Shown piece by piece: positions 1,944-2,160 of a stretch of 64,000 nt of DNA. The DNA is from Candidatus Limnocylindrales bacterium (GTDB taxonomy: Bacteria; Chloroflexota; Limnocylindria; Limnocylindrales; CSP1-4): NCBI GenBank assembly GCA_050014975.1, contig JBEKCH010000003.1, positions 8,081 through 72,080 of the forward strand. The letters run 5' to 3'. Each line of letters begins with the position of its first letter. Position 1 is the first letter of the stretch. Made by a program: the position numbers and the translations under genes. Below the pieces are notes generated by a model. The model saw nothing but the letters and a program-made list of their open reading frames with translations. It had not been told where the DNA came from and did not search any database.

Positions 1944-2075
1944 ATGGCCCACACTTCGCCGCCAATGAACGCCGACGCCTTCAGCCACCGGGAGTGTTCG
2001 CGCCAGGCCTCGAGCCTGCGCGGTTCCATGATGTCCATGCCCGGGCGGCCCCGAAGTGCGGAGGACGGGGTCTGA
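1944..2075 (+). CDS. Putative Met-rich leader peptide (MAHTSPPMNADAFSHRECSRQASSLRGSMMSMPGRPRSAEDGV)
   Basis: 43-codon uORF with 5 in-frame ATG, including ATG ATG TCC ATG at 2028-2039, upstream of a terminator hairpin and metY-metX; no clear SD. Confidence 0.5.
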   Translation: MAHTSPPMNADAFSHRECSRQASSLRGSMMSMPGRPRSAEDGV

Positions 2076-2122
2076 GGCTCTCGCTCGCCTGAGCGCAGCG
2101 GGGCCGAGGATCGGTCCCGGGG

Positions 2123-2160
2123 CCGCGGTTTCCTGAACGGAACCGCGGTTCTTTGTTTCT
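2123..2160 (+). terminator. Intrinsic terminator/attenuator in the metY-metX leader
   Basis: CCGCGGTTTCC-tgaac-GGAACCGCGG stem (one bulge) followed by TTCTTTGTTTCT. Confidence 0.75.

Follow-up and report, generated by a model that had tools for sequence, protein, structure and literature searches.

A candidate methionine-sensing leader-peptide attenuator before metY-metX in Candidatus Limnocylindrales and its cysteine and lysine sister leaders

Transcription attenuation by leader peptides is the textbook control of genes for tryptophan, histidine, leucine, threonine, phenylalanine and isoleucine/valine. Control of the methionine and lysine genes is generally ascribed to riboswitches, T-boxes or repressors, and at the RNA level metY and metX are mostly controlled by S-adenosylmethionine (SAM) riboswitches and Met T-boxes; for lysine, no published leader-peptide attenuator is known to us (no literature search was made on this point). 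Here, we propose that positions 1927-2165 of a 64,000-nucleotide stretch of DNA from a Candidatus Limnocylindrales bacterium (contig JBEKCH010000003.1; hereafter the window, from whose first letter all positions are counted) very probably form a leader-peptide transcription attenuator of metY-metX that reports charged elongator Met-tRNA. A conserved short open reading frame (ORF), codons matched to the product of the genes that follow, an intrinsic terminator before the first gene and a mutually exclusive antiterminator were all found; where transcription starts, that the ORF is translated, that ribosomes stall on it and which way regulation runs are what we infer. The mechanism would be the textbook one, and what would be new is its specificity, its leaderless layout and the use of one scaffold for three amino acids.

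Several described systems come close to this one, and the parts of their reports available to us set the bounds of what we say of them here and below. In mycobacteria, leaderless poly-Cys ORFs (the "Cys ribulon") were shown to be translational attenuators (Canestrari et al., bioRxiv 10.1101/834739). A leaderless metL, ending in ...CMCRRMCAF and a stop, was predicted before metNIQ in Streptomyces lividans TK24, where no typical terminator is reported (PMC8079986), and in Campylobacter jejuni both MetL and the Met-rich CJsORF19 (MMYQMR) were detected by ribosome profiling (PMC11955535); as far as the available sections go, neither paper tested mechanism. For Actinobacteria, Trp, Cys and Leu elements are described, yet no conserved RNA structure before Met operons in the part of the report at hand (Seliverstov et al. 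2005, PMC1262725), and the 5' untranslated region of a Xanthomonas met gene is said to resemble a SAM-I riboswitch (PMC6230763). In this partly available literature (supplements aside), Met-codon attenuators thus appear only as the S. lividans and C. jejuni predictions, without a test of mechanism.

Methionine codons, terminator and antiterminator of the leader

A preliminary description of the region, made from its letters and a list of its ORFs, had pointed to a 43-codon ORF (1944-2075) with five in-frame ATGs, among them the run ATG-ATG-TCC-ATG (2028-2039), and had read it as a sensor of Met-tRNA that controls a terminator ahead of metY-metX. The ORF and its ATGs (1944, 1965, 2028, 2031 and 2037) are present in the sequence, and the role suggested for the leader is now strongly supported by comparative evidence. 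The start codon is another matter: ATG 1944, then taken as the start, lies between conserved -35-like and -10-like hexamers and is in frame in only 5/24 relatives, and one-base indels occur among relatives around its site. In an alignment of 25 upstream regions, ATG 1965, an open frame and a stop in one shared alignment column are found in 24/24 relatives. The stop is TGA in 22/24 and TAG in the two most divergent, and three independent indels within the leader ORF (21, 6 and 15 nt, the last at locus L147) all keep the frame. A competing ATG at 1934 and the lack of a Shine-Dalgarno sequence before 1944, both remarked on earlier, are seen as well, and before ATG 1965 the window sequence likewise holds no Shine-Dalgarno sequence.

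Upstream of this start, the -10-like hexamer carries A as its second and T as its sixth base in 24/24 leaders (alignment read by eye), and 9 nt past it comes a conserved block, CAATGAAC, that holds ATG 1965. The Cys and Lys sister leaders described below carry CTTGACG or CTTGCGC at an equal distance from their own start codons. Conservation thus suggests that 1927-1932 and 1950-1955 act as a promoter, and points to a probable transcription start next to ATG 1965.

Codon positions in the sensor run are numbered from the codon in which R2, the 5' strand of the putative antiterminator, begins. Met stands at codon -5 in 23/24, at -4 in 22/24 and at -2 in 24/24 genus leaders, and in other genera at -4 in 37/38 and at -2 in 38/38; across the aligned relatives the Met run is therefore a conserved feature, with M-x-M kept both in the genus and in other genera. 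The distance down to R2 (2045-2053) is 17 nt from the first Met codon and 8 nt from the last. Because the DNA is 70% G+C, ATG is rare in the region: with A and T at 15% each, 0.27 internal ATGs are expected in 35 codons, and three or more in-frame ATGs inside four consecutive codons arose in 9/200,000 shuffles of the leader. The Met cluster exceeds chance.

Downstream, a terminator scan called a single site, against 0.2 +/- 0.5 in shuffled sequence, where a terminator hairpin with a U-tract (2123-2160) had been described earlier; the stem spans 2119-2152. The terminator covaries, with six pairs changed on both sides in 60 leaders of many genera, and 0/500 shuffles reach covariation this high. 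Its 5' arm shares R3 with the antiterminator: the R2:R3 duplex consists of nine G-C pairs at -23.8 kcal/mol, versus -23.1 kcal/mol for the terminator, and overlaps the terminator arm by 8 bases, so the two are mutually exclusive. Standard pairs fill 99.5% of R2:R3 cells in 24 leaders and 99.6% in 60. Changes in R3 are solely C-to-U, with pairing to both partners retained; the next terminator-arm base, just beyond R2:R3, covaries freely (G-C 39, A-U 20), and the invariance of the arm ends exactly where R2:R3 ends. Pair 8 of R2:R3 in the Lys sister leaders is U-A in 14, C-G in 4, U-G in 1 and broken in 1 (n=20). This C-G to U-A change is antiterminator covariation of a kind that Met leaders cannot show.

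On the aligned leaders, the conserved alternative helix thus appears to be 2045-2053 with 2118-2126. The preliminary description had drawn the switch among 2019-2027 (CGCGGTTCC), 2100-2109 (GGGGCCGAGG) and 2123-2133. Both named segments were located where it placed them, but the 1:2 and 2:3 helices that it built from them have standard pairs in just 80% and 73% of cells, respectively, and individual pairs fail in as many as 11 and 14 of 24 relatives. As switch strands we rejected both: 2100-2105 belongs instead to a covarying local hairpin, as its 3' arm, and 2019-2027 is absent from other genera, where DNA matches begin at ~2019-2031.

Further structure surrounds these strands. The 5' domain, found in the present genus only, occupies part of R2 in ribosome-free folds, and its helix H1 shows one-sided changes plus a few two-sided changes in the 24 leaders. 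R2 also has a local partner; 2047-2053 and 2066-2072 are paired in 95.8% and 96.9% of cells (two counts), with only G-U / G-C variation, a pairing not proven by covariation. The variable hairpin shows compensatory two-sided changes at two pairs, U-A 12 / C-G 8 and G-C 12 / C-G 6. The GGAGG of the leader ORF recurs in Cys (AGGAGG) and Lys (GGGAGG) leaders at a similar distance past R2, and RNAalifold pairs 2056-2065 with TTTCTCCGGAC at 2156-2166 past the T tract, with no covariation.

As a separate observation, a small hairpin of ~15-21 nt (GAGCGAAAGC...GCTTTCGC type) is inserted at differing places in five relatives (loci L017, L020, L021, L022 and L147): two of them have it in the H1 loop, where its 21 and 15 nt keep the frame, and the remaining three have it in the loop of the terminator. 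It is possibly a small insertion that is mobile or recurs.

How might these parts work together? The promoter at 1927-1932 / 1950-1955 would start the mRNA at or within ~3 nt of ATG 1965, and R2:R3 pairing would block the terminator formed by 2119-2152 and its T tract. When Met is scarce, the ribosome would pause while a Met codon occupies its A site; the 5' domain would open and R2 would stay outside the ribosome, letting R2:R3 form and RNA polymerase read on into metY-metX. When Met is plentiful, the ribosome would pass over R2 to the stop at 2073-2075, and R2 would be covered, or re-sequestered by 1984-1992 and/or 2066-2072, after which the terminator would form and transcription stop.

Sister leaders with cysteine and lysine codons

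Searched with a covariance model of 60 Met-type leaders, the present genome yields three copies, one of Met type, one of Cys type (contig C13) and one of Lys type (contig C82); in the genus the model matches in 24/24 genomes, with exactly three matches in most. The Cys leader had first been found through weak DNA matches to 2103-2159 elsewhere in relatives. It occurs in 23/24 genus genomes and in the present one; in relatives it precedes cysE-cysK, and the C13 copy is homologous to those. Its layout comprises a -35 CTTGACG, a -10 CATGAT and an ATG or GTG start 6-7 nt on, then an ORF whose 17-19 codons include Cys-x-Cys in every copy, followed by CGGCGGCCCCG, GGAGG and the stop, and afterwards GGGGCCGCGG and the terminator. 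The ATG/GTG start, C-x-C and stop are kept in 25/25 copies, and two Cys leaders, put out of frame by a 2-nt indel, end at a newly acquired TGA.

The genes after the Lys leader are dapB (1.6e-34) and dapA (4.5e-54). Its AAG codons stand at -6, -4 and -2, compared with ATG at -5, -4 and -2 in the Met leader. K-x-K is present in 18/18 parsed genus Lys leaders, with dapB downstream of each, and three further ones, read by eye, have AAG-NNN-AAG-NNN-AAG. The three leader types have in common R-(W/G)-R-P-R and the terminator, and their tails past R-P differ (RRAEDGV, RRRR and CREARP).

A natural codon swap on one RNA scaffold, with sensor codons at like positions, is on these comparisons the decisive evidence for the attenuator reading. 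It is also likely that a single modular scaffold (promoter, leaderless ORF, sensor codons, R-W-R-P/R2, GGAGG, R3 and terminator) has been copied and re-aimed by swapping 2-7 sensor codons, and that it lets the ribosome signal the supply of Met, Cys and Lys to metY-metX, cysE-cysK and dapB-dapA, respectively, throughout a family of uncultured bacteria. At the end of a contig of one genus relative (genome G012, locus L281) lies a further leader of Met/Cys type (...MPMGMMCCRRRPR...), with no downstream gene in view.

By DNA search, the stretch from the Met codons to the terminator is found in 74/151 genomes and 28/49 genera of the family (this tally, and no other claim, takes in genome G121). Forty other-genus loci were fetched, one of them of Cys type and two identical to each other. 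A promoter, an ATG/GTG and an ORF of 21-37 codons could be parsed automatically in 37 and by hand in two more, and the ORFs end in ...M-(C/Q/Y)-M-(R/P)-(W/R)-R-P-R-R-x-E-D-G-V and a stop. Two to seven Met codons stand just before R2 in 39/40 of these loci, some with runs of 5-7; the expanded runs (MRMAMGMQMMQM, MRMAMGMAM and MDMWMCLSMCMCRM) grow by in-frame ATG-NNN repeats. metY lies downstream in 38/40, at times behind an OsmC-like or a beta-carbonic-anhydrase-like gene. Such a gene comes first after some Met/Cys-type leaders (among loci L215, L218, L222, L223, L227 and L241-L242).

Class-wide, DNA matches were obtained in 51/91 genomes of the own family, in 5/103 of a second family, and in 0/12 and 0/92 of two others. 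The second family yielded four loci with M-C-M leaders, two of them before metY; at another of its loci (L242) the next genes are SCO4226-like and then weakly acyl-CoA-dehydrogenase-like, and the regulon may be wider than metY. The covariance model has matches in 24/32 genera of the family. Of its weaker matches fetched from other genera, 17/20 lie before dapB: 15 were parsed automatically with Lys runs (KKK, KAK, KKSKK and KQK), one has K-E-K by eye and one is cut off at a contig end. The other three comprise a Lys run with no gene in view (contig end), one Cys type and one Met type. A pattern scan of genome contigs with GCGGCCCC...GGGGYCGCGG proved too loose, with one true leader (L147) among the at least 120 matches listed. 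The sole named public record with a Met leader among the matches listed is a metagenome-assembled genome, "uncultured Chloroflexia bacterium".

Folding predictions, transcripts and rival explanations

To follow the switch along the leader, the ribosome was modelled as an unpaired stretch from -15 to +13 about the A-site codon, a footprint on which the result depends, and transcripts ending just past the terminator 5' arm were folded, with the probability of R2:R3 as the measure. (An earlier measure, the 5' arm paired with anything upstream, gave ~0.9 everywhere and was replaced.) In the genus Met leaders (n=24), the median R2:R3 probability is 0.03 with no ribosome, 0.34, 0.98 and 0.69 with the A site at codons -5, -4 and -3 (Met, Met and Ser), and 0.00 from -2, the third Met, to +7. 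The Cys leaders (n=23) give 0.00 with no ribosome, 0.86 at the first Cys codon and 0.00 past the sensor codons and at the stop, and the other-genus Met leaders (n=38) give 0.51 with no ribosome and values that stay high as far as the first Met (0.99), drop to 0.09 one codon further on and are 0.00 after that. From this profile it follows that, in the model, the sensor codons are the last positions at which a paused ribosome releases R2 without covering it, a placement that would match classical attenuator design. In this folding model, formation of R2:R3 depends on where the ribosome sits.

Metatranscriptome contigs, which come from relatives (85-99% identity) and carry no start, end or level, cover 1950-2185 and metY in 4/4 runs from four studies, and so place the leader in RNA libraries. 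A few of them bridge the leader and metY across the divergent spacer, with no cover over 2186-2248.

Several results weigh against the attenuator as we have drawn it. R2:R3 is also predicted with the ribosome on the last sense codon or on the stop (genus medians 0.97 and 0.62; ~0.8 at the stop in other genera), and 14/38 other-genus leaders have the antiterminator above 0.8 with no ribosome at all. For the full-length leader of the window, terminator probability is 0.5-0.86 at every ribosome position; the off state of the Met leader is not explained by equilibrium folding and therefore needs kinetics. Several of the metatranscriptome contigs reach 36-178 nt upstream of 1962, so that the proposed start is not supported by them; they may argue against that start, or reflect DNA in the libraries. 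A sigma-70 promoter scan of 1700-2400 returned 0 sites, the -35 and -10 hexamers of the window match the E. coli consensus poorly, and with ATG 1965 sitting 9 nt past the -10 a leader of 1-3 nt is possible. Met starvation should also lower the charging of initiator tRNA. Finally, column entropy in the leader ORF is 0.44 at the first codon position, 0.35 at the second and 0.31 at the third; without an excess of third-position variation, the ORF is constrained as RNA and not as protein, which is expected of a leader, yet is also what a riboswitch would show.

This last point bears directly on the idea that the element is a riboswitch or protein-bound RNA switch (for SAM, Met, or another ligand or protein) whose reading frame is incidental. 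The very high nucleotide conservation without third-position variation, the invariant and unpaired-looking blocks such as GGAGG, the conserved block past the terminator, and the terminator/antiterminator pair, which is the usual output of riboswitches as well, would all suit such a switch. We nevertheless give it very little probability. Rfam (4227 families, SAM and T-box included) has zero matches in the Met leader at E up to 10 (1-8000 scanned), in agreement with the earlier remark that no SAM or T-box motif is to be seen, and zero in the leaders of Cys and Lys type at E up to 1. Met, Cys and Lys genes are all preceded by one common scaffold, in which just the 2-7 codons ahead of R2 change to match the pathway; a single ligand pocket would not predict this. 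The ATG/GTG start at a fixed place, the in-frame indels, the frameshift compensated by a new stop and the expansion of Met codons as in-frame ATG-NNN repeats all point to a frame that is read. Were it read for its product, the C-terminal peptide R-W-R-P-R-R-A-E-D-G-V could be an arrest peptide that senses a metabolite inside the ribosome, as TnaC does with tryptophan; plant CGS1 behaves in a like manner with SAM. The conservation of R-(W/G)-R-P-R in Met, Cys and Lys leaders would fit, but those codons coincide with R2, whose pairing explains their conservation, the tail past R-P varies by leader type and specificity tracks the sensor codons, which makes an arrest peptide extremely unlikely.

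Met-tRNA might also be sensed as we propose, with the main output being translational control of metY by masking of its ribosome-binding site (RBS), or Rho or RNA stability. This is very unlikely, although several observations lend themselves to it: the leaderless Cys ORFs of mycobacteria work on translation in the part of that report available (bioRxiv 10.1101/834739), a CTCC-containing block (2156-2162) past the T tract could pair with GGAGG-type sequences, a partly conserved spacer of ~110 nt leads up to metY, and the T tract TTCTTTGTTT is interrupted. Set against these, the hairpin and T tract are called as a terminator, covary and occur in all three leader types, and the alternative helix competes with the terminator arm and not, as far as pairing there was looked at, with the metY RBS. 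There is, lastly, a frame on the opposite strand, running from 2038 down (MDIMEPRRLEAWRE... / MDIMEPRRLEAW...), which is open over 1965-2075 in 21/24 relatives, has an ATG in 22/24, and has third codon positions that coincide with those of the plus-strand frame. Its length varies from 20 to >70 codons with no conserved stop, two relatives lack the start, it has no Shine-Dalgarno sequence and no codon-position periodicity, and its region is not conserved beyond the genus, whereas the plus-strand leader ORF is. We therefore rejected a small protein encoded there, which has next to no chance of accounting for the locus, and keep the leader-peptide attenuator as the preferred reading.

Genomic context and comparison with known systems

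The leader lies in a ~480-nt region (1790-2272) that separates two diverging genes. Since the upstream sulfhydrylase paralog on the minus strand neighbours the leader in just two genomes, the present one and one relative (L022), the leader belongs to metY. Leader DNA from ~1923 to 2290 is 74-90% identical in 23/24 genomes of the genus, and the ~110-nt spacer between terminator and metY is conserved in part. Within that spacer, the GCCGCC of the block at 2170-2185 could pair with GGCGGC at 2044-2049. The metX assignment comes with a MetX_acetyl score of 286 bits, which is below the 500-bit cut-off. As to composition, metY has one ATG codon in 452 codons and zero Cys codons, and in metX Met makes up 1.8% and Cys 0.3%; sulfur amino acids are almost absent from the very enzymes that serve to make them.

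Table 1. Features of the leader, its gene neighbourhood and its sister leaders (positions in the window unless a contig or locus is named)
Feature	Position	Strand	Remarks
Sulfhydrylase paralog (second O-acetylhomoserine sulfhydrylase)	485-1789	-	NF004650, 705 bits; 55% identity to metY
-35-like hexamer TTGCGC (CTTGCGC block 1926-1932)	1927-1932	+	CTTGC[G/A]C in 24/24 same-genus leaders
-10-like hexamer CACACT (mostly TACACT or TATGCT in relatives)	1950-1955	+	17-18 nt after -35
Leader ORF, 36 codons, MNADAFSHRECSRQASSLRGSMMSMPGRPRSAEDGV and stop	1965-2075	+	Leaderless or nearly so
5' domain: H0 (1984-1992 with 2041-2049) enclosing H1 (1994-2006 with 2016-2026) and mini-hairpin (2028-2030 with 2036-2038)	1984-2049	+	RNAalifold consensus, 24 leaders
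Sensor codons ATG ATG TCC ATG	2028-2039	+	Met at 2028, 2031, 2037
R2, GCGGCCCCG, putative antiterminator 5' strand	2045-2053	+	Pairs with 2118-2126
Invariant GGAGG within leader ORF	2060-2064	+	60/60 Met-type leaders
Local R2 partner (candidate anti-antiterminator hairpin, 2047-2053 with 2066-2072)	2066-2072	+	-12.1 kcal/mol
Variable hairpin, closed by helix 2068-2075 with 2111-2118	2076-2108	+	RNAalifold, 24 leaders
R3, CGGGGCCGC, putative antiterminator 3' strand	2118-2126	+	Common to terminator 5' arm
Intrinsic terminator, stem-loop (14 pairs) then TTGTTTCTCC	2119-2152; T tract TTCTTTGTTT 2149-2158	+	Scan call
Conserved block ACGACGGGCAGCCGCC in spacer 3' of terminator	2170-2185	+	Genus-wide conservation; other genera have ACGACGGGTAGCCGCC
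metY Shine-Dalgarno AGGAGG	2262-2267	+	
metY, O-acetylhomoserine sulfhydrylase	2273-3628	+	GTG start; Pfam Cys_Met_Meta_PP 4.2e-142; NCBIfam OAH_OAS_sulfhy 676 bits vs cut-off 495
metX, homoserine O-acetyltransferase	3656-4837	+	NCBIfam MetX_acetyl 3.3e-85; Pfam Abhydrolase_1
Cys-type leader MNSRPYACLCPRRRPRRRR and stop	contig C13:55435-55597, locus L055	-	Leaderless ATG; same R2, GGAGG, R3, terminator
Lys-type leader MFVQLLAKPKSKRWRPCREAWP and stop	contig C82:5125-5277, locus L247 ~1440-1655		Own terminator; before dapB-dapA

In light of these findings, the three sister leaders amount to a clean natural codon-swap experiment, which indicates that ribosome stalling can report Met and Lys too, although Met also initiates translation. 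If our proposal is true, leader-peptide attenuation by Met and Lys would be the normal mode of control in this uncultured lineage, and sensors of mixed M-C-M type would combine the signals of two sulfur amino acids. The leaders define an RNA family absent from Rfam, with which the Met, Cys and Lys regulons of uncultured bacteria of high GC content could be annotated better, and the compact, re-programmable scaffold could serve as a design for synthetic amino-acid sensors.

How does the leader compare with known systems? With SAM riboswitches (SAM-I, SAM-IV and others) and Met T-boxes it shares its place before Met genes and the output through a switchable terminator. It differs from them in that the ribosome would read the signal through codons, where they use a ligand pocket or a leader that binds tRNA. 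The S. lividans and C. jejuni ORFs are, like ours, short, rich in Met codons and placed before Met-related genes, and the S. lividans one is leaderless and also Cys-rich; metL of S. lividans and CJsORF19 of C. jejuni precede transporter genes, whereas the present leader precedes metY-metX, a comparison drawn from the descriptions given in the available sections of those papers (PMC8079986; PMC11955535).

The leaderless Cys ORFs of mycobacteria, to the extent that the available part of their description goes, share with it a leaderless start, sensor codons near the 3' end, a position before sulfur amino-acid genes and the use of one sensing logic at several loci (Canestrari et al., bioRxiv 10.1101/834739). 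As described there, they unmask an RBS without an intrinsic terminator, whereas the present leader has a covarying terminator and an antiterminator, and its alternative pairing involves the terminator arm, which sets it apart from a translational attenuator of the mycobacterial type. The sensors differ as well, being polycysteine in the mycobacterial ORFs and 2-7 Met codons here, or C-x-C and K-x-K in the sisters.

Compared with the enterobacterial attenuators (trpL, hisL, leuL, thrL, pheL and ilv), the present leader has no sequence homology, would sense Met (Cys and Lys in its sisters), is apparently leaderless with no Shine-Dalgarno sequence, and reuses one scaffold for three amino acids. 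What it has in common with them is the design: a short ORF rich in codons for the product, together with a terminator and an antiterminator, in which the sensor codons, here 8-17 nt before R2, would let a stalled ribosome free the antiterminator strand.

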